Shown one piece after another: positions 11,631-62,127 of a DNA stretch of 64,000 nt. Position 1 is the first letter of the stretch. Every line of letters begins with the position of its first letter. The notes beneath the pieces are model-generated. The model did not search any database. It was not told the DNA's origin and saw only the letters and a program-made list of their open reading frames with translations. The DNA is from an uncultured Clostridia bacterium (GTDB lineage: Bacteria > Bacillota > Clostridia > TANB77 > CAG-508): positions 8,141 through 72,140 of the forward strand of contig CALXCD010000001.1 of assembly GCA_944386715.1 (NCBI GenBank), written 5' to 3'. The translations under genes were made by a program, and so were the position numbers.

Positions 11631-11726
11631 CAAAAGTATTGATATATTAATATTTTGCAGACAAGACCCGGATTGTTACGCTCAAGATATGTTTTGTCAA
11701 ATAATATTAATATATCAATACTTTTG
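11631..11726. mobile_element. MITE-like structured element, copy 1: perfect 24-bp inverted repeats (CAAAAGTATTGATATATTAATATT / RC) around a conserved 48-nt core TTGCAGACAAGACCCGGATTGTTACGCTCAAGATATGTTTTGTCAAAT
   Basis: Read directly. The core is about 80% identical to 41557-41609, whose flanking inverted repeats are different but also perfect. Confidence 0.6.
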
Positions 11727-11787
11727 GATATTTATTTTTTACTCATTAACTAGTAACATGGGGACGTTCCTTTTTGACAACTTGCAG

Positions 11788-26757: not shown

Positions 26758-26782
26758 TTTTTATTAGCTCCTATCCATCATT

Positions 26783-26828
26783 GGTTCCAGGTTTGGATGC
26801 CAATTTTTTGGCATTCAAACCTGGAACC
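26783..26828. repeat. Palindromic element copy 2: GGTTCCAGGTTTGGATGCCAA-TTTTT-TGGCATTCAAACCTGGAACC (45/46 identical to copy 1)
   Basis: Read directly. Sits between the dnaB stop and the tilS start. Confidence 0.85.
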
Positions 26829-26839
26829 AAAAGCAAAAT

Positions 26840-28175
26840 CTAATCATCAAATCTTTTTTCTAGATTCACAAATTTTGTATAGCTTCCTAACCATAATAAT
26901 TCTATTGTTCCTGTAGAACCACCTCTATGTTTTGCAAGTATTACTTCTGCAATGTCCTTTTTTTCACTATCTTGATTATAATAATCATCACGATATAAAA
27001 ACATAACAATATCAGCATCTTGCTCGATAGCTCCAGATTCTCTTAAATCTGAAAGCATAGGTCTATGGTCTGGTCTTTGTTCTACTGCTCTTGATAATTG
27101 TGATAAAGCAATTACTGGCACATTCAATTCTTTTGCCAAAATTTTCAAAGACCTACTAATTTCAGAAATTTCTTGTTCACGGCTACCGTTTCTCTTATTG
27201 CTTCCTTGTACTAATTGCAAATAGTCAATAACCACCATCCCAATATTTTTTTCTAATTTTAATTTTCTACATTTTGCTCTAATCTCCATCACAGAAATTC
27301 CCGGTGTATCGTCAATATAAATTTCCGCATCAGACAATGGTCCGGATAGCTCCAGCAAGTTTAGTCCAATCCTCTTCCTCTAATTTTCCAGTTCTTACTT
27401 TATTACTATCTACCATTGCTTCACTACACAAAATTCTATTTACCATTTGTTCTTTTGACATCTCTAGACTAAAAATAGCAACTGGTACTTTTGCTTTTAC
27501 AGCCGCATTTGCTGCAATATTAAGAGCAAAAGCAGATTTTCCCATCGCAGGTCTTGCAGCAATTAAAATTAATTCTGAACCATGAAAACCTGCCGTTTTA
27601 TAATCTAACTGTACAAAACCTGATGGAACACCTGTAATATGTTGTTTTCGATTATATAACTCTTCTAATTGTGTAAAACTATCTACTAAAATATCTTTAA
27701 TGGGTGTATAACCTTTTTGATTTTTATTTTGCATCATATTAAAAATTTTTTTCTCTGCCCCTTCCATGATGTCTTCTACATCCTCTGTTGGGTCATATCC
27801 TAATTCAATAATTTCATTAGCAGTTTTGATTAAATTCCTTAATGCTGCTTTTTCTTCCACAATTTTAATATATTTCATAGCATTTGCAGTAGTAGGAACT
27901 TTATCTGGCAGCTCTGCCAAATACTCTAATCCTCCTACCTGTTCAAATTTTCCCATGGTTTCTAATTCTGATTTAACAGTAATAATATCAATAGGTTCTG
28001 CTCTGTTATATAGATTCAAAATTGCTTCATATATTGCTTTGTTATCCTCACGATAAAAATCTTCTTGTTTTAATACTTCTATGGCTGAAATCACAGCATC
28101 TCTATCTGTTAACATACTACCAATTACTGCTTGTTCAGCTTCTAAATCATGAGGTGGTACTTTTCCTAATTCCAT
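26840..28175 (-). CDS. dnaB: Replicative DNA helicase DnaB, split into two overlapping ORFs by a 1-nt frameshift at about 27330-27358
   Basis: Upstream ORF has the N-terminal domain and Walker [17 protein letters not shown] and ends ...[10 protein letters not shown]. Downstream ORF begins [20 protein letters not shown] and has Walker B and the RecA-like C-terminus. An extra C in ATCCGGA reconciles the frames. Confidence 0.8.
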
Positions 28176-39900: not shown

Positions 39901-40596
39901 TACTACAACACATCCTGAACTTCCAGAATAAGATGTAATTCTATTTCCTCTTAATGTTCCTGAACATGTTTTCCTCTCCTCACAAGTTCCAGCACTAGTA
40001 CTATAATAACCTGAATGTGTTGGGCAATGATAATGCTCTTCTTTAAATGTAGCCTCACATACACTACAATAATACCCTGCTGTTTCAACAAAAAATTCTC
40101 CACCATTTGGATTTAATGTTACTGTTGGTTTTATTTTATCTATTCTTGTAATATCTGCCTTAGCACTCATATCTTTATATTCTGAGATTATTGTACAATT
40201 TTTTCCAATGATAAATTCCTGCTCATATTTTTTCTTAACACCATCAATTGTATAATATCTTTCATCTTCTGGAACTGAAGCCGGAAAAGTAATTTCTACT
40301 TTCAAATCCTGATTTGTCCATTGTTCTATTGGATAAACCTCCCCTGAAGATGCAAAATACAAAGCAATATGAATATTTCCATTTACTAAATCATTATATT
40401 CCTTTTCCATTTCCTTTTCATTACTGCTTTGTTCATAATGTTTTTGTATTGTTTTAACTTGTCTATTTTGTTCTGATACACTATTTACAGTATTGACATA
40501 AATTGCATAAGCAATAATTATGAAAAAAAGTATAGCTATTAAAACAAATAAAGTAATAGAACCTCTTTCTTTTCCATGATTTTTGAATTTACTCAT
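30985..40596 (-). CDS. Giant (3204-aa) repetitive surface adhesin: N-terminal hydrophobic anchor/prepilin-like segment, Cys/His-rich module, Ig-like modules, about 8 tandem 255-aa Y(N/D)G MBG-like repeat units
   Basis: Start set at the ATG at 40596, preceded by AGGAGAG. N-terminus MSKFKNHGKERG|SITLFVLIAILFFIIIAYAI. Repeat unit contains SFVYNGKEQAPT, QYGSTLTAQT and QWYSNT...KYIYVVVTAKK. The ORF-track N-terminal extension has no RBS. Confidence 0.8.
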   Translation of the reverse strand: MSKFKNHGKERGSITLFVLIAILFFIIIAYAIYVNTVNSVSEQNRQVKTIQKHYEQSSNEKEMEKEYNDLVNGNIHIALYFASSGEVYPIEQWTNQDLKVEITFPASVPEDERYYTIDGVKKKYEQEFIIGKNCTIISEYKDMSAKADITRIDKIKPTVTLNPNGGEFFVETAGYYCSVCEATFKEEHYHCPTHSGYYSTSAGTCEERKTCSGTLRGNRITSYSGSSGCVVVGCNNPATKNVWMKCDECGQEWGTVTCDSHASYSTYYDINGYGCSMGTNCGKTLINTSTEQSAEDGTIEVKVTAKDEGGSGLNTRQYAWSNSNTTRPTEQEWEPLTNEQTVSKKDCEEGSYYLWTRITDVAGNEAIEVSKEFSVKPSTENLIILTQNPKDWTNQDVTVKIEYDDRITGDKTITVTGTEGIDYEIKDETEVIIKTNNQTITVTVEDESGKEITKEITISNIDKIKPTVTLTPNGGNTVMPDSGEATIKTTLTAADEGGSGLNKLEYAWSTSKDEQPKEEEWKTFENGETVSKEDCKAGTYYLWTRVTDIAGNRAEEVKVSNSFEVTKLESPMTVTSKTVKVGEKVDLSTLVSNAKGNVTYSIKNQTTQGSKIEGNTLTAGTNSINDDGDKTIVVTVTDAGNDNYKETSKEVTITVQKYTRTLEWENTTPDTVYYGDTSKKATVKVSGEGGTAGAITYQSSNPTYLTVDASTGTLTPVAVGGASEITAIMARTETVKEASITKTITVQKSLTATAVAEEEKIYNGANQKGINGNHVILTGTIEAIDAGTYTATATPEENYTWEDGTTEAKTITWKINPKTIAVIWGDVTNFVYNGKEQAPTATAESGVDGENLNITRTTAITVGNYTSTASLESVTGGRGKTTNYTLTNTTKEFTITNDKIAGNVKITGKNQYGSTLTAQTVVSPEDATLTYQWYFNTTESTTEGTPIEGANEKDYVVGKGLIGKYIYVQVTATKPNYGEATFSDITDPTNNESATVIKVSVEKPTLTGTYTYNGTNQTATLNKFDQATMNVSGNTGIDAGDYTAIISLKDSENYQWSDGTVTELTLDWKINTKSIEAVWGITTSFVYNGKEQAPTVKASSGVNGEVINVVRTTAKDVGTHTSVASIESVTGGRGKVSNYTLTNNTKEFTITNDKIVGNVTIIGTNQYGSTLTAQTVVNPEDATLTYQWYSNTTESTTGGTPIDGANKKDYTVGDGLIGKYIYVVVTAKKTNYGEVSFSDITDSDTNESATVMKANLEKPTVSGTYSYNGTNQKITLNGYDANVMNISGDTGIDAGDYTATVTLKDSSNYQWSDGTIANVTLSWKINPKQIPVIWGETTSFVYNGHPQAPTASAESGVEGETLNITRTTETNVGNYTSTAKLESVTGGREKVSNYTLIGTTKEFSIANQVITGSVKITGTNQYGSTLTAETTVNPSDATLTYQWYSSSNNVASGGTPIDGANKKDYTVGSGLAGKYIYVVVTAKKPNYGNASFSDITDPTNNGSATVMKINVQKPTAEGSYTYNGTTQTLTLKGLDAEKMNVSGNTGIDAGDYTAIVTLKDSENYQWSDGTTSNVTLSWRINPKEVAVVWGTTTSFVYNGKEQAPTVSAESGVNGETLNMTRTTETEVGSYTSTAKLESVTGGREKTANYILTNTTKAFNITNATITGSVTITGTNQYGSTLTAQTNVNPEDATLTYQWYSNTTNSTNGGTPIDGANRKDYTIGDGLVGKYIYVVVTAKKDNYNEVTFSDITDPTNNGSATVMKISIQKPTATGNYTYNGTNQTLTLNGFDAGNMTVSGNTGTDAGNYTATVTLKDSGNYQWSDGTTSNVTLSWKINAKEVAVIWGDTTSFVYNGKEQAPTVSAESGVSGETINITRTTEIDVGSYTSTASITNVTGGRGKTSNYTLTNATKAFNITNATITGSVKITGTNRYGSTLTAQTSVNPGDATLSYQWYSNTSNSTSGGTPINGATGKTYQIGSGLVGKYIYVVVTAKKTNYANATFSDITDGTNNGSATVTKINLNKPTATGNYTYNGATQTLSLSGYNSSTMNVSGNTGTDAGNYTATVSLKDSSNYQWSDGSTGNVSLSWKINAKSVAVTWGETTSFVYNGKEQAPTVVATSGVSGETINLTRTTGTNVGSYTSIASITSVTGGRGKASNYTLTNTTKAFTITNATITGSVKITGTNQYGSTLTAETSINPGDATLSYQWYSNTSNSTSGGTPINGATGKTYQIGSGLVGKYIYVVVTAKKANYTNATFSDITDSTNNGSATVTKINVAKPTVSGSYTYNGASQTLSLSGYNSSTMNVSGNTGTDAGNYTATVTLKDSSNYQWSDGTTSGVSLGWKINPKQISVTWGETTSFVYNGKAQAPTVVATSGVSGETINLTRTTGTNVGSYTSTASIESVTGGRGKASNYTLTNTTKAFNITNATITGSVTITGTNQYGSTLTAQTNVNPGDATLSYQWYSNTYNSTSGGTPISGATGKTYTIGNGLVGKYIYVVVTAKKTNYANATFKDITDSTNNGSATVTKINVAKPTASGTYTYNGNTQSLNVSGYNSSTMNISGNTGTDAGNYTATVTLKDSGNYQWSDGSTSSINLSWRISPKSVSVTWGSTTFTYNGKAQGPTASASSGIYGETLNITRTTEIGAGTHTSTASISSVSGGRGKASNYTLTGNTKQFTIARAKTATASAANKTYNGATQTGVTGSQVTWSGTQSAIDAGTYTAKATPTSNYAWSDGTTGAKSISWTINKKSVSVTWGSTTTFTYNGSPQAPTASADSGISRETLNITRTTEVSAGTHTSTASIESVTGGRKKTSNYTLTNATKAFTINKKAIQKTSGDYIGDYDGNSHTITLVVNEPRNGCNIYYSTSSTLTSSNYSTSGTTSKPSRSSAGTTTVYWYIHSTNGNYSDVSGSNTITINDVEPPETADFVKYDVAYTDVYYPEYKYSTTNGWRLLSYTDNQDGTYSNVKLISTGIPAKVAVDMLGSQLNNDWWVTDALGQQELEEALEWPSDWFSYAGDNSLAVSAGLYSNLGDIEFEYGEIQGKERYNKGSYISITNGSNVYDYYYPFMLKGNSLFKNGNVKLNTVTLTNINKARYNIDLSSTDTIQTFEDETGIYRLDQLKNVEGMSNYVYDSSRYLLATPLISDWDPDAVDYVEANGEIFSGTGVTTIFPEGDGIRPVITINSDRVIFNKSADGKYYTMEY
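32560..38350. repeat. Tandem array of about 8 near-identical repeats of about 765 nt inside the giant adhesin gene
   Basis: The landmark string CCTCCTGTTACACTTTC(T/C)A..CTTGCTGTTGA recurs at about 32611, 33381, 34146, 34911, 35675, 36441, 37203, 37965. Confidence 0.85.
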
Positions 40597-40912
40597 TTTA
40601 CATTCTCTCCTATAAATATTTTTATGCTTTAACAATTCTAATTTAACAAAGCAAAATAAATATTTCAATGCTTTAATTTGGTAAAACCTATCTCCCTTTA
40701 TCAAAGCACTTACGGATTTCGTATTTCGTTTATCTTATTAGAAAAAATTAATTTTATTTTACATTTTTGTAATATTGCTGTAATTTATGCACAAAAAAGC
40801 CTTAAATATTCGATAAATGTCTTTTTTGCAAAAATGTAAAAAAATTTTTCTTGATTTTGCGAGTTTCTTTTGATATATTAATTTTAATTTATAGAGAGGA
40901 AAAATGTTATAA

Positions 40913-41458
40913 AAAAACAAGAAAATCATTATATCCGTAAGGATTGCTGTTATTGTTTTAATAGGATTTTTCATTTTTTTACTAATAAACAACCATAAAA
41001 ACAATACTTCTATAGACCAAAATATTTCCAATAATACTTCAACTGAAATAAATGAGATATCAACAGAGTCTGAATCTACGGTACCAACATTTACCCTAGA
41101 AAGTACACCAGATAATCCTATTGAAATGGACGGGGTAGAAGCCACTACTATCAAAATAAGTAATAATGCAGGAGATGTAAAAGTAGATACTATATTAAAA
41201 AACAATTCTGATGAAGATATACATGGGTTTTTTATCGAAATAAATTTACTAGATAAAGATAACAATATTATTACAACCCTTTCTGAAAATTCCGAAAAAA
41301 CTATAAAAGCTCATAGCGAACATGCCCTAACAAACTATATTACAGCATTAGATAACGCAGAAAATATAACAAATGCACAAATTGTAACAATGGAAAAAAA
41401 CAGTATTAAAAACATGTTAGAAAATAGGTTTCAAGATATAGAAATGATAAAAGAATAA
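40913..41458 (+). CDS. Membrane-anchored 180-aa protein with N-terminal signal-anchor; canonical ATG at 40904 is followed by an in-frame TAA at codon 3
   Basis: Strong RBS AGAGAGGA then ATG TTA TAA. The open frame resumes KNKKIIISVRIAVIVLIGFFIFLLINNHK... and runs to 41458. The first internal ATG is at 41126 (ORF-track entry). The antisense ORF 40759..41265 is low-complexity. Confidence 0.45.
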   Translation, partial: KNKKIIISVRIAVIVLIGFFIFLLINNHKNNTSIDQNISNNTSTEINEISTESESTVPTFTLESTPDNPIEMDGVEATTIKISNNAGDVKVDTILKNNSDEDIHGFFIEINLLDKDNNIITTLSENSEKTIKAHSEHALTNYITALDNAENITNAQIVTMEKNSIKNMLENRFQDIEMIKE

Positions 41459-41466
41459 TTAATACA

Positions 41467-41684
41467 TGAATCTGTCAAGGGGGATATTCCTTTTGGCAGA
41501 TTTCGTTATTTATCATAAAAACTAAAACTATATGAAAAAGTAGTTATCTATTCATAATTTGCAGACAAGACCCGGATTATTACACCCCAAGATTGCTTTT
41601 GTCAAAAAGTATGAATAGATAACTACTTTTTAAGTTATATATAAGTGAAATCTGCCAAAAGGAATATCCCCCTTGACAGATTTA
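41467..41684. mobile_element. MITE-like structured element, copy 2: perfect 35-bp outer IR (AATCTGTCAAGGGGGATATTCCTTTTGGCAGATTT / RC), perfect 22-bp inner IR, conserved core TTGCAGACAAGACCCGGATTATTACACCCCAAGATTGCTTTTGTCAAA
   Basis: Read directly. Fills the gap between the convergent stops of the 41458 gene and rpoC, so it may double as a bidirectional terminator. Confidence 0.6.
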
Positions 41685-41686
41685 CA

Positions 41687-44600
41687 TTATTCTATTATTC
41701 CAGAAACTTGTTCCAATTCTTCCTCTGTACTAATTTTTAAGTCTTGATATTTTTGCATTCCTGTTCCTGCTGGAATTAACTTACCAATAATAACATTTTC
41801 TTTTAATCCCACTAAATCATCAGTCTTACCTTTAATAGCTGCTTCTGTTAATACTCTTGTCGTTTCTTGGAAAGAAGCTGCTGACAAGAAACTATCTGTT
41901 GCAAGAGATGCTTTTGTAATACCAAGTAATACTCTCTTACCTGTAGCAGGACGTTTTCCTTCTTGTTTTGCTTGTTCATTTTTCTCTTCGAATTCATACA
42001 TATCTATTAAAGAACCTGGGAACATGTCTGTATCACCATTATCTTCTACTCTTACCTTTTTAAGCATTTGTCTACCAATTACTTCAATATGTTTATCATT
42101 GATATCAACACCTTGGTTACGATATACTTTTTGAACTTCTGAAATCAAGTATTCATAAACACCTTCTGGTCCTTTAATAGCTAATATTTCTGCTGGATTG
42201 ATAGAACCTTCAATTAAAGGCTCTCCTGCTTCTACCATATCTCCCTCTTTGACTTTCATCTTAGAACCAAATGGAATTGTATATGTTTTAGCATCATCTT
42301 TACTTGTAACAATAACTTCTTTCTTTTTCTTAGTTTCTTTAATTTTAACCTTACCATCTATTTCAGAAATAATAGCAAGTCCTTTTGGTTTTCTAGCTTC
42401 AAATAACTCTTCAACCCTTGGAAGACCTTGTGTAATATCTGCAACACCAGCAACACCACCAGAGTGAATAGTTCTCATTGTAAGCTGTGTACCGGGTTCA
42501 CCAATAGATTGTGCAGCAATGATACCAATCGCTTCTCCAATGGATACCAAATCTCTTCTTGCAAGTCCCATACCATAACATTTTTGACATACACCATGTT
42601 TTGAACGACATCCTAATACAGAACGAACTTTTAATTTTTCTATACCTGCTGCTACTATTTTCTCTGCAATAGCTTCTGTAATCATAGTATTGGTATCTAC
42701 AATTAATTCTTTTGTTTCTGGATGATATACATCTTCTACTACAAATCTTCCTAATAATCTTTCTTGCATTTTTTCAATAATTTGATTTCCATCTTTAATG
42801 TCATAAATAATAATACCATCATCTGTACCACAATCATGCTCTCTAACAATAATGTCTTGTGAAACATCTACTAATCTTCTTGTTAGATATCCTGAGTCAG
42901 CTGTTCTTAAAGCTGTATCAGAAAGTCCTTTACGAGCTCCATGGGCAGAAATGAAATATTCTAAGGCATCTAGACCTTCTGCAAAAGATGATTTAATTGG
43001 AATTTCTACTGCCTTACCAGTAGTACTTGCCATTAAACCACGCATACCTGCAATTTGTCTTAATTGGTTCATATTACCACGGGCTCCAGATTTAACCATC
43101 ATATAAATTGGGTTTAATTCATCAAAATTATCTTCCATGGCATTACTTACTTCTTTGGTAGTAGCTTCCCATACATTAATAACAGCATTATATCTTTCAC
43201 TATCTGTAATAAGACCTCTTGCATATTGTTTTCTAATATTTTCTACTTTGCTATCAGCTTCTTCTAATAATGCTTTTTTCGCTTCTGGCACTTGCACATC
43301 ACTCATAGAGAAAGTAATACCTGCTAAAGTAGAATACTTAAATCCTAATGCTTTAATATAATCAATTACCTCTGCAGACTCTGATAATCCATGAATTCTA
43401 ATAACACTTTCAATAATATTACCCATAGATTTTTTCATAACAGGGAAATTAATCTCATATTGGAAAGGATCTTTCTCTCTATCAATAAATCCTAAATCTT
43501 GTGGAATTCCTTGATTAAAGATAATTCTACCAACACTAGTTTCAATTTTTTGAGATTTCATCTCTCCATTTATTTCTTTTGTAATTCTAACATAAATTTT
43601 TGCATGAATTTCTACTTCATGATTTTCGAAAGCCATGATTGCTTCATCTGGGTCTTTGAAATATTTACCTTCCCCTTTTTCTCCATCTAATACCATTGTT
43701 AAATAATAACTTCCTAAAATCATATCTAGTCTAGGAACTGCTACTGGTCTACCATCTTGTGGTTTTAACAAGTTATTGGTAGATAGCATTAAATATCTAG
43801 ATTCTGCCTGTGCTTCTGGTGATAATGGTAAATGTACTGCCATTTGGTCACCATCGAAGTCTGCATTAAATGCCTCACAAACTAATGGGTGAAGTTTTAT
43901 TGCTCTACCTTCTACCAATACTGGTTCAAAGCTTTGTATACCTAATCTATGTAAAGTAGGAGCACGGTTTAGCATAACAGGATGGTCTTTAATAACTTCT
44001 TCCAAAATTCCCCATACTTCTGGTTTTAATCTTTCTACCATTCTTTTTGCGTTTTTAATATTTTGCGCAATACCTCTGCCTACTAATTCTCTCATGACAA
44101 ATGGTTTAAACAACTCTACTGCCATTTCTTTTGGAAGTCCACATTGATAAATCTTAAGTTCTGGTCCTACTACGATAACAGAACGTCCAGAATAATCAAC
44201 ACGTTTTCCAAGTAAGTTTTGACGGAAACGACCTTGTTTTCCTTTTAGCATATCAGATAAAGATTTTAATGGTCTATTTCCAGCACCAGTTACAGGTCTT
44301 CCACGTCTTCCATTATCAATCAAAGCATCTACAGATTCTTGTAACATTCTTTTTTCATTTCTTACAATAATTTCTGGTGCTCCTAATTCTAATAATCTTT
44401 TTAAACGATTATTTCTGTTAATAACTCTTCTATATAAATCATTTAAATCAGAAGTTGCAAATCTACCACCATCTAATTGAACCATTGGTCTTAATTCTGG
44501 TGGAATAACAGGAACTACCTGCATTACCATCCATTCTGGTCTATTTCCAGAAATTCTAAAAGATTCTACTGTATCTAATCTTTTTACAAGTTTTACCTTT

Positions 44601-45245: not shown

Positions 45246-45298
45246 GGGGGACTGTCCCTCGATTGCCAAAAATGGTTACTTTTGGGACAGGTCCCCTA
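45246..45298 (-). promoter_or_regulatory. GC-rich 12-bp stem-loop (GGGGAC(C)TGTCCC ... GGGACAGTCCCC) in the rpoB-rpoC spacer
   Basis: Stands out in a 30%-GC background. Lies 40-90 nt upstream of the rpoC start. A candidate processing or attenuation structure. Confidence 0.4.
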
Positions 45299-45412: not shown

Positions 45413-45907
45413 TTACACTTCTCTTTCTTCTTCCTTATCTGTCTTTTCTTCTAACATTCCTTGTGTCCAAAATACTTTTAGCCAGGTAGCATATCTGTCT
45501 CTATTTCTTTCATCCTGCTGTGTTAAATGTTCCAATATAGATTCTTCCGTAATTTCCTTATTTTGCTGTTTCATTTGTCCCATTGTTTCCTTGATTTTTT
45601 GCATCGCACGATTTCTTAAATGTATCGCTTCTATTTGTTCTCTTTCCACATGATTTCTATCTACTATGGCAACATTATCTACATAAGTTAATATTTTACT
45701 TAATCTTAGTTTTGCTTCGCTAACAGCTTGATGTTTTAAACCCAAATATGGCAAACTCTCTATACCTAAATTATTTACAATTTCATCAAAATTAACAAAA
45801 GCTCCATTTGGCAATTTTCCAACCGTATTACATATCCCTTTTACCAAAGTATTTCTTATTGCTTCTCTTGTATTAATTTCATATTTGGGAATCTCTAATC
45901 TACTCAT
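45413..45907 (-). CDS. Hypothetical 164-aa protein encoded between rpoB and rpoC (helical, Glu/Lys-rich C-terminus)
   Basis: Intact ORF starting 11 nt after the rpoB stop with RBS AAGAGGAAAA. 204-nt spacer before rpoC. Composition matches the host genome. No recognisable motif. Confidence 0.6.
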   Translation of the reverse strand: MSRLEIPKYEINTREAIRNTLVKGICNTVGKLPNGAFVNFDEIVNNLGIESLPYLGLKHQAVSEAKLRLSKILTYVDNVAIVDRNHVEREQIEAIHLRNRAMQKIKETMGQMKQQNKEITEESILEHLTQQDERNRDRYATWLKVFWTQGMLEEKTDKEEEREV

Positions 45908-58931: not shown

Positions 58932-58974
58932 TTTGTTCTCCTTTCTTTAGCCTTTACATCCCATTTTCTATAAA

Positions 58975-59065
58975 ATACTTATATATTAATATTGAAAAAA
59001 TTTTGAATATGAATAAAGAAAAGTTAGAATTTATAAAATATTAATATATAAGTATTTATAATCAT
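58975..59065. repeat. AT-rich inverted-repeat element: ATACTTATATATTAATATT ... AATATTAATATATAAGTAT around AAATTTTGAATATGA
   Basis: 19-bp perfect arms read directly. The same TATATTAATATT + AAATTTTGAATATGA unit recurs at 60403-60440 in the same orientation. Confidence 0.6.
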
Positions 59066-60326: not shown

Positions 60327-60397
60327 CTTTATTCCTTCATTCCATTTTATATTTAAACTTTTATTAGTTACAATTCACAACTAAAATTTATTAGAAT

Positions 60398-60605
60398 GTT
60401 GATATATTAATATTAAATAAATTTTGAATATGATTGTAGATGTTTTAGAATTTGTTATATGATTTATTGAGGAATGTTCACGGTACTCGAGGTACGAGAG
60501 GGTTTGAGTGAAAGAGACTCAATAAATCATTTTACAAATTCTTAAATATCGTATTGAATCGAAAAATTTATGAAATATTAATATATCAATATTTTTATTA
60601 ATCTA
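60398..60605. repeat. AT-rich inverted-repeat element (GTTGATATATTAATATTAAATAAATTTTGAATATGA ... AAATTTATGAAATATTAATATATCAAT) enclosing a GC-richer inner hairpin (GATTTATTGAG ... CTCAATAAATC)
   Basis: Read directly. The inner core GAATGTTCACGGTACTCGAGGTACGAGAGGGTTTGAGTGAAAGAGAC is unusually GC-rich for the window. Confidence 0.55.
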
Positions 60606-62127
60606 ATTGGTTATAATAATTCATATTAATATCCTGACCCAAATGCCATCTACCAATAAAATCTACTAATAAATAATTATCTAAGTTATAAGTCGGCTCT
60701 ATCACAACACTTCCTTTACTATCCACACTTCCCCATTTTCCATCTTTTTTGATACCAGCGAAACCATAACTATTTTGACTTGTTACATCATCATATAAAT
60801 AATCCACAATCACTTTTCCGTTTTTATCAACAAATCCATATTTTCCATCCTTTTTACTAACAAATAATGTATTGTTACTTAAAATATCAGTTTGAGATTT
60901 TTCTTCAAATCTAAAATTATAATATTTATAATCTTCACCTTGTTTTAATTCCATATAACCTTTATCTGTATCAATTTGAATCAATATTCCTGTTTGCTTT
61001 ACCGCAAAATTATTATCTAAAATATTAGCTTGGAAAGAAGTATCTTCCGCCACATAAAAATCTGCTGCTTCTTGATAAGTAATAGATTGATATTGAAATG
61101 GCAATTTTTCTTGTCCTGCCATATCTATGATACCAAATTTTCCATCTTTAGAAGCAATAAAAATTCCTGATTTTGCCTCTTTCAAAGATTCATAAGTACT
61201 ATCTATTACTACCTTTCCTGTTAAATCCATGACTCCAAATTTATCTGCCTTTTGATAAATAACACCAGCTCCACTTGTTTTTAAAATAGCTGTTATTTTA
61301 TCAAATCCATCTTTTAACACTTCTGTTCCGTCTTTTTGTATTAATTTTTGTTTTCCTGCTTCTACTACAACATACAAGTCATTTCCATAAACTGCTTCAA
61401 TACCTTCATATTGATTTGGCAATACCTGATTTTTAGAATAATCAATAATACCATATTTTCCTTGCTCATCTTTTACAATATAACCTGATTTATTATCTTT
61501 GCCAAGTGGTTTAATTTCTGTATAAGCAATATCTGTCATTGCTTTTCCCTCTTTATCTACCACACCATATTTTCCATCTTTTTGAATCAGAATCGCATTT
61601 TTAATTCCTGCTACTGCTTCAATAGTTTCATATTCAGGCTGTAGTATTTCTTTTCCTTCAAAATTTATCATACCATATTTGCCATTTTTTTGTACTTTTA
61701 AAACATCTTCTTCATACCATAAATTTTGATTTACATCTTGGTTAGGAATTGCTTCTACTTTGTCATATTGTGTAAATATCATCTCATTTTTGCTATTTAA
61801 AACCTTGGTTTTATATTCTCCAGTTTCATAGTTTACATCATAAGTACATAAGAAAATATCATTTTTGTTATTAGGAACTATTATCATCTCTTGATAAGAA
61901 GGATCTATTACTGTATTTCCATTAGAATCCATAACACCCCATTTATTATCATGGAAAGCTGCAAAATAACTTAAACTACTAATACTTCCGGTACTACTAT
62001 CTTGTTCTTTTTGTAAGATTCCTTTCATCATAAATACAAACATGATAATAACTAATATAGCAACAATAACTGCTACCACTTTTTTCATATTTAATTTTGG
62101 TTCTTCATATCTTTTCCCTTTACTCAT
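60598..62127 (-). CDS. Membrane-anchored WG-repeat (KWG/WG_beta_rep) protein
   Basis: N-terminal TM then many DGKYGVxD / KDGKWG repeats. Confidence 0.75.
   Translation of the reverse strand: MSKGKRYEEPKLNMKKVVAVIVAILVIIMFVFMMKGILQKEQDSSTGSISSLSYFAAFHDNKWGVMDSNGNTVIDPSYQEMIIVPNNKNDIFLCTYDVNYETGEYKTKVLNSKNEMIFTQYDKVEAIPNQDVNQNLWYEEDVLKVQKNGKYGMINFEGKEILQPEYETIEAVAGIKNAILIQKDGKYGVVDKEGKAMTDIAYTEIKPLGKDNKSGYIVKDEQGKYGIIDYSKNQVLPNQYEGIEAVYGNDLYVVVEAGKQKLIQKDGTEVLKDGFDKITAILKTSGAGVIYQKADKFGVMDLTGKVVIDSTYESLKEAKSGIFIASKDGKFGIIDMAGQEKLPFQYQSITYQEAADFYVAEDTSFQANILDNNFAVKQTGILIQIDTDKGYMELKQGEDYKYYNFRFEEKSQTDILSNNTLFVSKKDGKYGFVDKNGKVIVDYLYDDVTSQNSYGFAGIKKDGKWGSVDSKGSVVIEPTYNLDNYLLVDFIGRWHLGQDINMNYYNQLD

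Follow-up and report, generated by a model that had tools for sequence, protein, structure and literature searches.

Bacterial genomes carry several families of multi-copy intergenic hairpin elements of about 100 bp, among them the Correia elements of Neisseria, the enterobacterial ERIC elements, the pneumococcal RUP and BOX elements, and bcr1 of Bacillus cereus. Copies of these elements occur in either orientation and sometimes in tandem, and they differ in presence or absence between close lineages. Correia elements contain promoter-like hexamers and act as terminators or as RNase targets. Other described systems with which the locus reported here can be compared are the REP and REPIN sequences that accompany RAYT genes, the bidirectional intrinsic terminators, and the invertons, which include E. 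coli fimS, the Bacteroides invertible promoters, and the C. difficile switches cwpV/Cdi1, flgB/Cdi4, and cmrRST. In C. difficile cwpV, a terminator hairpin has been proposed at the junction of the repeat and the invertible region, and the repeats themselves are imperfect and 21 bp long (PMC2784873). The repeats of such switches are typically 10-20 nt in length (PMC5903667).

We analysed a 64-kb stretch of DNA from an uncultured Clostridia bacterium, hereafter the window, in which a nested palindromic element lies between rpoC and a small convergent gene (Table 1). This element resembles both the invertons and the dispersed palindromic repeats and is not a proven member of either class. It shares with invertons an invertible intergenic segment, a promoter-like sequence inside that segment, and a large variable surface-type protein encoded nearby, and as in cwpV, a predicted terminator hairpin is found where the repeat meets the invertible segment. 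It differs from invertons in that its arms are 36 bp long, perfect, and each a complete terminator-like hairpin, in that its orientation follows strain phylogeny rather than varying freely, in its placement between convergent genes about 970 nt from the candidate target, and in that a dispersed repeat makes up its interior, with no recombinase among the window ORFs scanned. With bidirectional intrinsic terminators it shares a site between two stop codons and a stem-loop that an A-tract precedes and a T-tract follows, whereas its own design is that of two strand-asymmetric mirror hairpins with a flippable 142-bp insert between them.

The repeat family that supplies the insert can be compared with the Correia, ERIC, RUP, BOX, and bcr1 elements. 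In contrast to these, the family has a conserved core and stems that diverge yet stay complementary, its modules are nested in further palindromic shells, it is confined to a very narrow clade, and no parent IS or transposase was found for it among the window ORFs scanned. REPINs likewise consist of paired inverted units that form long hairpins and are dispersed between genes. However, a REPIN has conserved arms, a variable loop, and a RAYT gene, whereas here the arms vary, the core is conserved, and no Y1 transposase is present among the 25 window ORFs scanned.

Table 1. Features of the rpoC-downstream element and its surroundings (positions in the 64-kb window)
Feature	Position	Strand	Description
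Copy 1 of the ~95-bp module	11631..11727	+	divergent region between a SNF2 helicase gene and a 197-aa ORF
Giant gene, 3203 aa	30985..40596	-	Thr/Ser/Gly/Asn-rich repeats, N-terminal membrane anchor; ATG at 40596
Small convergent gene	40904..41458	+	homologue of a 173-aa membrane-anchored protein; starts ATG-TTA-TAA
Left outer arm	41469..41504	+	would terminate the small convergent ORF; first recombination arm
Invertible interior	41505..41646	.	142 bp in the window strain
Copy 2 of the ~95-bp palindromic module	41535..41631	+	A-tract, 26-bp stem, 45-nt core, stem, T-tract
Conserved core	41561..41605	+	GCAGACAAGACCCGGATTRTTA...TTTTGTC
Sigma70-like match in core	41576..41605	-	-35 TTGACA 41605-41600, 18-nt spacer with TG, -10 AATAAT 41581-41576
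Right outer arm	41647..41682	-	perfect reverse complement of the left arm; putative rpoC terminator and second recombination arm
rpoC, 1173 aa	41687..45208	-	stop codon 4 nt from the right arm

A repeat search resolved the outer inverted repeat into two 36-nt arms that are 100% complementary and have 142 nt between them, and a G·T pair lengthens the outer stem to positions 41468 and 41683. An earlier note on this DNA had described a perfect 35-bp repeat starting at 41467; the perfection of the repeat holds, and its extent is corrected to 36 nt starting at 41469. The inner repeat (41535-41560 and 41606-41631) is 26 nt long at 96% complementarity and encloses the 45-nt core, and the perfect 22-bp hairpin that had been noticed here is found within it. 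The label of copy 2 that was given to this inner module is borne out by the second module elsewhere in the window, with which it shares 82% identity over 96 nt. The stop codon of the small gene (TAA, 41456-41458, + strand) lies just upstream of the left arm, which starts 10 nt further on, and 4 nt separate the right arm from the stop codon of rpoC (41687-41689, - strand); the element does therefore adjoin both stop codons, as the same note had observed, with spacings about one base larger than the 9 nt and 3 nt it had given. The arm sequence has no further site in the 64-kb window beyond the two arms, and the number of matches expected by chance is 0. When the 236-nt region is folded, the predicted free energy is -101 kcal/mol on the + strand (z = -18 versus shuffles) and -103 kcal/mol on the - strand (z = -13 versus shuffles).

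Each of the two arms, whose sequence is of the type GGGG..TTCCTTTTGGCAGATT, is also nearly self-complementary. Reading inward, an arm is predicted to form a 16-bp stem with five G·U pairs, a 4-nt loop, and a U-rich tail. The left arm alone folds with -19.8 kcal/mol inward (+ strand) versus -8.9 kcal/mol outward, and the right arm alone with -20.3 kcal/mol inward (- strand) versus -10.2 kcal/mol outward; the outward hairpins are weak because the G·U pairs turn into C·A mismatches on that strand. On the + strand the left-arm hairpin is followed by the tail CGUUAUUUAU. On the rpoC side, the window strain has a poor tail, ACUUAUAUAU, where the commoner variant has a better one, ACUUUUUUAU. The U-rich tracts previously reported on both strands thus do follow both arms, with the one on the rpoC side being weak in the window strain. 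A consensus scan recognised as terminator-like the left arm of the window and the orthologous rpoC-side arm of L095, a contig of the sister lineage considered below. Each arm read inward therefore presents what is expected of an intrinsic terminator, namely a stable stem-loop with a U-rich tract just past a stop codon, and on the strength of these predicted structures we consider it quite likely that the right and left arms terminate transcription of rpoC and of the small convergent ORF, respectively. Since the arm transcribed first is already a complete hairpin with a U-tail, a terminated transcript never contains the second arm, and because either convergent transcript meets such a complete hairpin first, the 36-bp long-range pairing is unneeded in RNA. 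A ~60-nt near-perfect hairpin with a 29-bp stem occurs elsewhere in the window at 8160-8221 and 26779-26837 (83% identity), each time at the end of a gene, and this repeated terminator-like hairpin has a TTGGCA/TGCCAA motif in common with the arms of the rpoC element.

The 110-aa ORF originally called opposite rpoC (41126-41458) proved to be the 3' part of the 173-aa gene, which is interrupted by a stop at codon 3; the description of the two genes as convergent is thus correct as to position, and the 110-aa ORF does not represent the full gene. The ATG-TTA-TAA start is present in every window-lineage contig and reflects 5 inserted nucleotides that are missing from the intact gene of the sister lineage, which suggests that the small gene probably became a pseudogene recently in the window lineage. 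A 168-aa ORF at 40759-41265 (- strand) was set aside as non-coding by codon usage. A chimeric ORF in contig L055 (P0003) matches the 110-aa ORF exactly over its first 26 residues and is different thereafter; the sequence beside it resembles RNase P RNA.

The sister lineage, whose rpoC is 95.6% identical, has other arrangements at this site. Contig L095 has the same two arms, here 36 nt at 94% complementarity, around a 91-bp interior (11260-11350) that contains shell sequences and no core. In contig L054, by comparison, the 36-nt intergenic region is a single classical bidirectional terminator, AAATATTGCCAAAGGT-AGCA-ACCTTTGGCAATATTT, next to a small ORF that is 97% identical to that of L095, and an 'empty' shell of stems without a core is located upstream of this ORF at 480-545. 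Empty shells in the sister lineage indicate that the repeat family is modular and nested. The element is thus polymorphic for presence or absence, with the pocket lacking the core in L095 and the whole structure lacking in L054, and three states exist among close relatives, namely the simple terminator by itself, the two arms around an empty pocket, and the two arms around the core module. This comparison of the region downstream of rpoC, which had been proposed as a check for insertion, identifies the core as an addition and its position as that of a terminator.

The module inside the pocket belongs to a dispersed palindromic repeat family. The family unit of ~95 bp consists of an A-tract, a 21-26-bp stem, the 45-nt core, the returning stem, and a T-tract. 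Copy 1 has the same core as copy 2, different but again complementary stems, and extra outer shells. Scanning a genome collection with an 18-nt core sequence yielded 11 loci with true copies, some of them in tandem, and all of these loci belong to two MAGs of uncultured Clostridia; the remaining matches in that collection were dismissed as chance matches in GC-rich coding DNA. A metagenome core scan contributed 3 further copies, all from one sample, and an nhmmer search of the fetched loci brought the family to about 25 copies in total, about 20 of which are in the two MAGs. The family accordingly has the makeup of a dispersed repeat, with many intergenic copies bearing terminal inverted repeats, 2 of them within the window. 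The module is located 4-102 nt past the upstream stop codon in 10 of 10 non-divergent contexts, which is the position of a terminator; 6 of 17 family loci occupy divergent regions, which have no need of a terminator. The neighbours of the copies at other loci are housekeeping genes. We conclude that the family is lineage-specific and dispersed and probably mobile, and that a terminator-like or selfish-repeat role of the module is at least as likely as a promoter role.

The core is conserved between family copies whereas the stems are divergent, and the manner of this divergence is informative. An alignment of 18 copies shows 97.5% pairing in the stems, where both partners have changed in 10 pairs and a single partner in 0. 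G·U pairs make up only 2 of 521 cells, and shuffles and slid controls all score far lower. Compensation that avoids wobble intermediates in this way fits a requirement for a perfect palindrome at the level of DNA better than it fits selection for an RNA helix. Inside the core no covariation was detected, and helix 2 is invariant.

In plasmid and phage collections, a BLAST search with the element returned no match, and one core match in a viral contig was judged to be a chance match in GC-rich DNA. Rfam at gathering score gave 0 matches over the whole window, and a tRNA/tmRNA scan found none; the Rfam matches of both copies at E ≤ 10 were only generic plant miRNA-precursor-like hairpins and were dismissed as meaningless. 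When we checked for target-site duplications, a 5-bp TACAT was found to flank both outer arms, offset by one base, and none was evident around the inner modules. In contig L020 (MAG BRZ_RS bin5), the interval between leuS and an HD-domain gene holds a family copy inside similar 35-nt arms (4656-4919); these arms are 91% complementary and 194 bp apart, making this a second candidate invertible pocket. The window also contains a second type of palindromic module, at 58972-59057 and 60377-60611, with similar TATATTAATAT-type arms and a different promoter-like core, TTGAAT-16-TAGAAT; inside the copy at 60377-60611 lies a GC-rich hairpin (60439-60550), possibly a small RNA.

On the strand opposite 'GCAGACAAG...', the family core reads as TTGACA, a spacer of 17-18 nt, and AAYAAT, often with a TG, and the differences from copy to copy and from strain to strain fall mostly in the would-be spacer. 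The core in the window matches the sigma70 consensus at 11 of 12 positions, the best match between 40500 and 41800, and copy 1 does so at 10 of 12. This promoter-like sequence is oriented toward the downstream gene in 7 of 9 tandem-gene contexts (p about 0.09). In the window strain it is directed away from rpoC, with the ORF remnant and the giant gene ahead of it, and in the flipped state described below it is aimed into the 3' end of rpoC. The -10 element of nearly all family copies is AACAAT with an invariant C, and 15 further bases downstream are conserved, which is more than a sigma70 promoter explains; the -35 element varies among copies (TGGACA, TAGACA, TGAACA, and others). At three family loci the downstream gene has a better promoter of its own between the module and the start codon, and the idea that the core is the sole promoter of downstream genes is weakened by such better canonical promoters downstream of modules. 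Judging from its sequence, the core may fire as a promoter, a possibility about which we are somewhat doubtful. We also compared the core by eye with consensus sequences for sigma54, ECF-sigma, attC, dif/Xer, cre, the Spo0A box, and IHF, and none fitted.

The element was located in 16 distinct contigs from independent metagenomes, which were retrieved by exact protein matches to the 110-aa ORF, to RpoC, and to a 99% variant. The arms are present in all 16, around interiors of 136, 142, or 150 bp. Three of these contigs, L039, L041, and L043, each from a different sample and together from two projects, have a flipped interior, which is exactly reverse-complementary to the commonest variant, that of 150 bp seen in 8 other contigs. 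A short intergenic segment inside inverted repeats thus occurs in both orientations in nature, as in invertons, which indicates that the arms have recombined there. The arms of the three flipped contigs differ at one position, and each base is kept on its own side, indicating that the exchange took place within the inner ~25 bp of the arms.

The flipped contigs are also alike in their flanking haplotype and in a private SNP that lies 78 nt beyond the left arm, and a neighbour-joining grouping agrees with this linkage of orientation to the flanking haplotype. The private SNP and the grouping make a single inherited inversion the most parsimonious interpretation, and one such inversion is the simplest account of the flipped contigs. 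Several independent inversions, which had been suggested by pairwise distances, were set aside after the flanking-haplotype analysis. Identical strains from different samples have the same orientation, and none of the contigs seen places both orientations within one sample. What the contig data prove, then, is recombination of the arms in nature, not rapid phase variation. No inversion was found at copy 1 in 9 contigs or at the nested-repeat element at 60377-60611 in 4 other contigs, and a Pfam scan of 25 window ORFs (of 34 of at least 150 aa, plus the 110-aa ORF) detected no recombinase or transposase domains.

The gene that the core promoter would serve in the common orientation is the giant gene, which begins about 970 nt downstream. 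It is 87-98% identical between strains, compared with about 99.5% for rpoC and its flanks. Its ORF is uninterrupted in 11 of 11 assessable contigs of the common orientation. Nonsense codons are present at codon 395 in the flipped contigs L039 and L041 and additionally at codon 56 in L041, two contigs that do not differ otherwise in 4.1 kb of flanking sequence, and in L043, also flipped, the giant ORF is intact over 1297 codons. The restriction of the nonsense codons to flipped contigs is suggestive of a functional link to orientation, within one lineage only. A closer promoter-like site upstream of the giant gene, ATTACA-17-TAAAAT, is conserved with the sister lineage.

Several other features of this neighbourhood were recorded. 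Within the giant gene, a 765-nt unit is repeated in tandem at least seven times, and a 692-aa paralogue at 52236-54314 matches the giant gene at 92% identity over one stretch and resembles it in its pilin-like N-terminal anchor. Between rpoB and rpoC lies a 164-aa ORF (45413-45907, - strand) with no Pfam match, which is kept in relatives at 68-98% identity and in the same synteny, and a GC-rich hairpin at 45246-45298 parts this ORF from rpoC. The dnaB gene is split into overlapping ORFs at 27330-28175 and 26840-27358 by a frameshift or a sequencing error.

The reading that we favour, with a probability of roughly 0.5, is that paired inward terminators have come to serve as a recombination-prone repeat around a pocket that holds a mobile promoter-like palindrome and that has flipped at least once. 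The element would then be composed of three layers. Two inverted 36-nt hairpins, one facing each convergent gene, would most likely end the transcript of that gene. The near-identity of these two copies would make them a recombination-prone inverted repeat, across which the 136-150-bp pocket would have inverted at least once. The pocket, finally, would hold one perfect-palindrome repeat of ~95 bp with a centre that matches a sigma70 promoter. We think it fairly probable that the inversion came about through rare general or replication-linked recombination of the arms, and less likely that it required a dedicated recombinase.

The main competing explanation is a true inverton, in which a recombinase encoded elsewhere flips a promoter segment such that the common orientation is ON for the giant protein and the flipped orientation is OFF. 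A short intergenic segment within inverted repeats and found in both orientations is what this predicts, and the best sigma70-like match of the region is inside the segment and aimed at the giant gene in 13 of 16 contigs. The target is giant, repeat-rich, hypervariable, and of surface type, as is typical of phase variation, and its ORF is whole in 11 of 11 common-orientation contigs, with nonsense codons in 2 of the 3 flipped ones. Retention of the arms in the sister lineage and the similar arms around a family copy at the unrelated locus in L020 are also consistent with a switch, and distant recombinase genes are frequent for known Clostridial switches (PMC5903667). However, no recombinase was found among the 25 ORFs scanned in the 64-kb window, orientation is perfectly tied to the flanking private SNP and is stable per strain, which points to one old event rather than frequent switching, and no sample among the contigs seen contains both orientations. 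The promoter would have to act from about 970 nt upstream of the giant-gene ATG, across an oppositely oriented ORF, on a gene that has its own conserved promoter-like site, and L043 is flipped yet retains an intact giant ORF for 1297 codons. In addition, the perfect 36-bp arms exceed the 10-21 bp of known switches (PMC5903667, PMC2784873) and are long enough for general recombination. We therefore regard an inverton as rather unlikely. A bolder variant, which we consider unlikely to a greater degree, is that the modules are mobile promoter 'capsules', perfect DNA palindromes that lodge in or beside terminators, and that two mirror terminators around such a module create an insulated invertible promoter.

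Three further explanations are each less probable again. The earlier note had interpreted the whole nested structure as one long RNA hairpin that works as a bidirectional terminator or as a stabiliser of the rpoC 3' end, and possibly as a cruciform in DNA. The predicted fold is indeed very stable on both strands, it lies directly between two stop codons, and a relative has a terminator at the same position. As to the terminator, this proposal survives for the arms individually, which form hairpins directly after the stop codons and have a counterpart in the terminator of L054. The 36-bp long-range stem is not supported as a working RNA structure, since the first arm is self-sufficient, with a complete hairpin and U-tail at which termination should precede the partner arm, and since the inner stems covary in the Watson-Crick manner only, as expected of DNA. 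Moreover, the interior flips without loss and is replaced by unrelated sequence in L095. A 142-bp spacer makes extrusion of a cruciform kinetically unlikely, and overall we find the long hairpin improbable. The core could instead be a structured non-coding RNA gene or a cis-regulatory RNA carried on a long stem, as conservation of 45 nt over about 25 copies and the many compensatory stem changes might suggest. Against this, no Rfam family is matched at gathering score (only the generic miRNA-precursor hairpins at E ≤ 10), the core shows no covariation and has an invariant helix 2, the stems are essentially without G·U pairs, copies face either way with respect to the genes beside them, and the core is absent from the equivalent element of the sister lineage, which together make an RNA core very improbable. 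Finally, de Bruijn graph assemblers can be confused by inverted repeats when k is smaller than the repeat, and the inversion might be an assembly artefact of this kind. The flipped form was recovered three times, in contigs that each come from a different sample and that cover two projects or assemblers. Every time it is the exact reverse complement, and the one arm difference stays on its own side in the flipped contigs; because these contigs also share a private SNP and a haplotype outside the repeat, we consider an artefact extremely improbable.

If paired terminators around a mobile promoter-like palindrome are indeed what is found downstream of rpoC, ordinary terminator hairpins can double as inversion arms while a dispersed repeat supplies the promoter, and the three states seen in relatives suggest a concrete route to DNA-inversion switches. 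Should the more speculative capsule idea be true, phase-variation switches would be born from ordinary terminators and a mobile promoter, and the switch here would gate a hypervariable giant surface protein near rpoC. If the inversion was instead a rare accident, the locus is a clean natural case in which a 36-bp inverted repeat gave rise to a structural polymorphism beside an essential operon. The repeat family itself, with its conserved centre and stems that covary in Watson-Crick fashion only, is unusual, and it may shape transcription boundaries in uncultured gut-type Clostridia.
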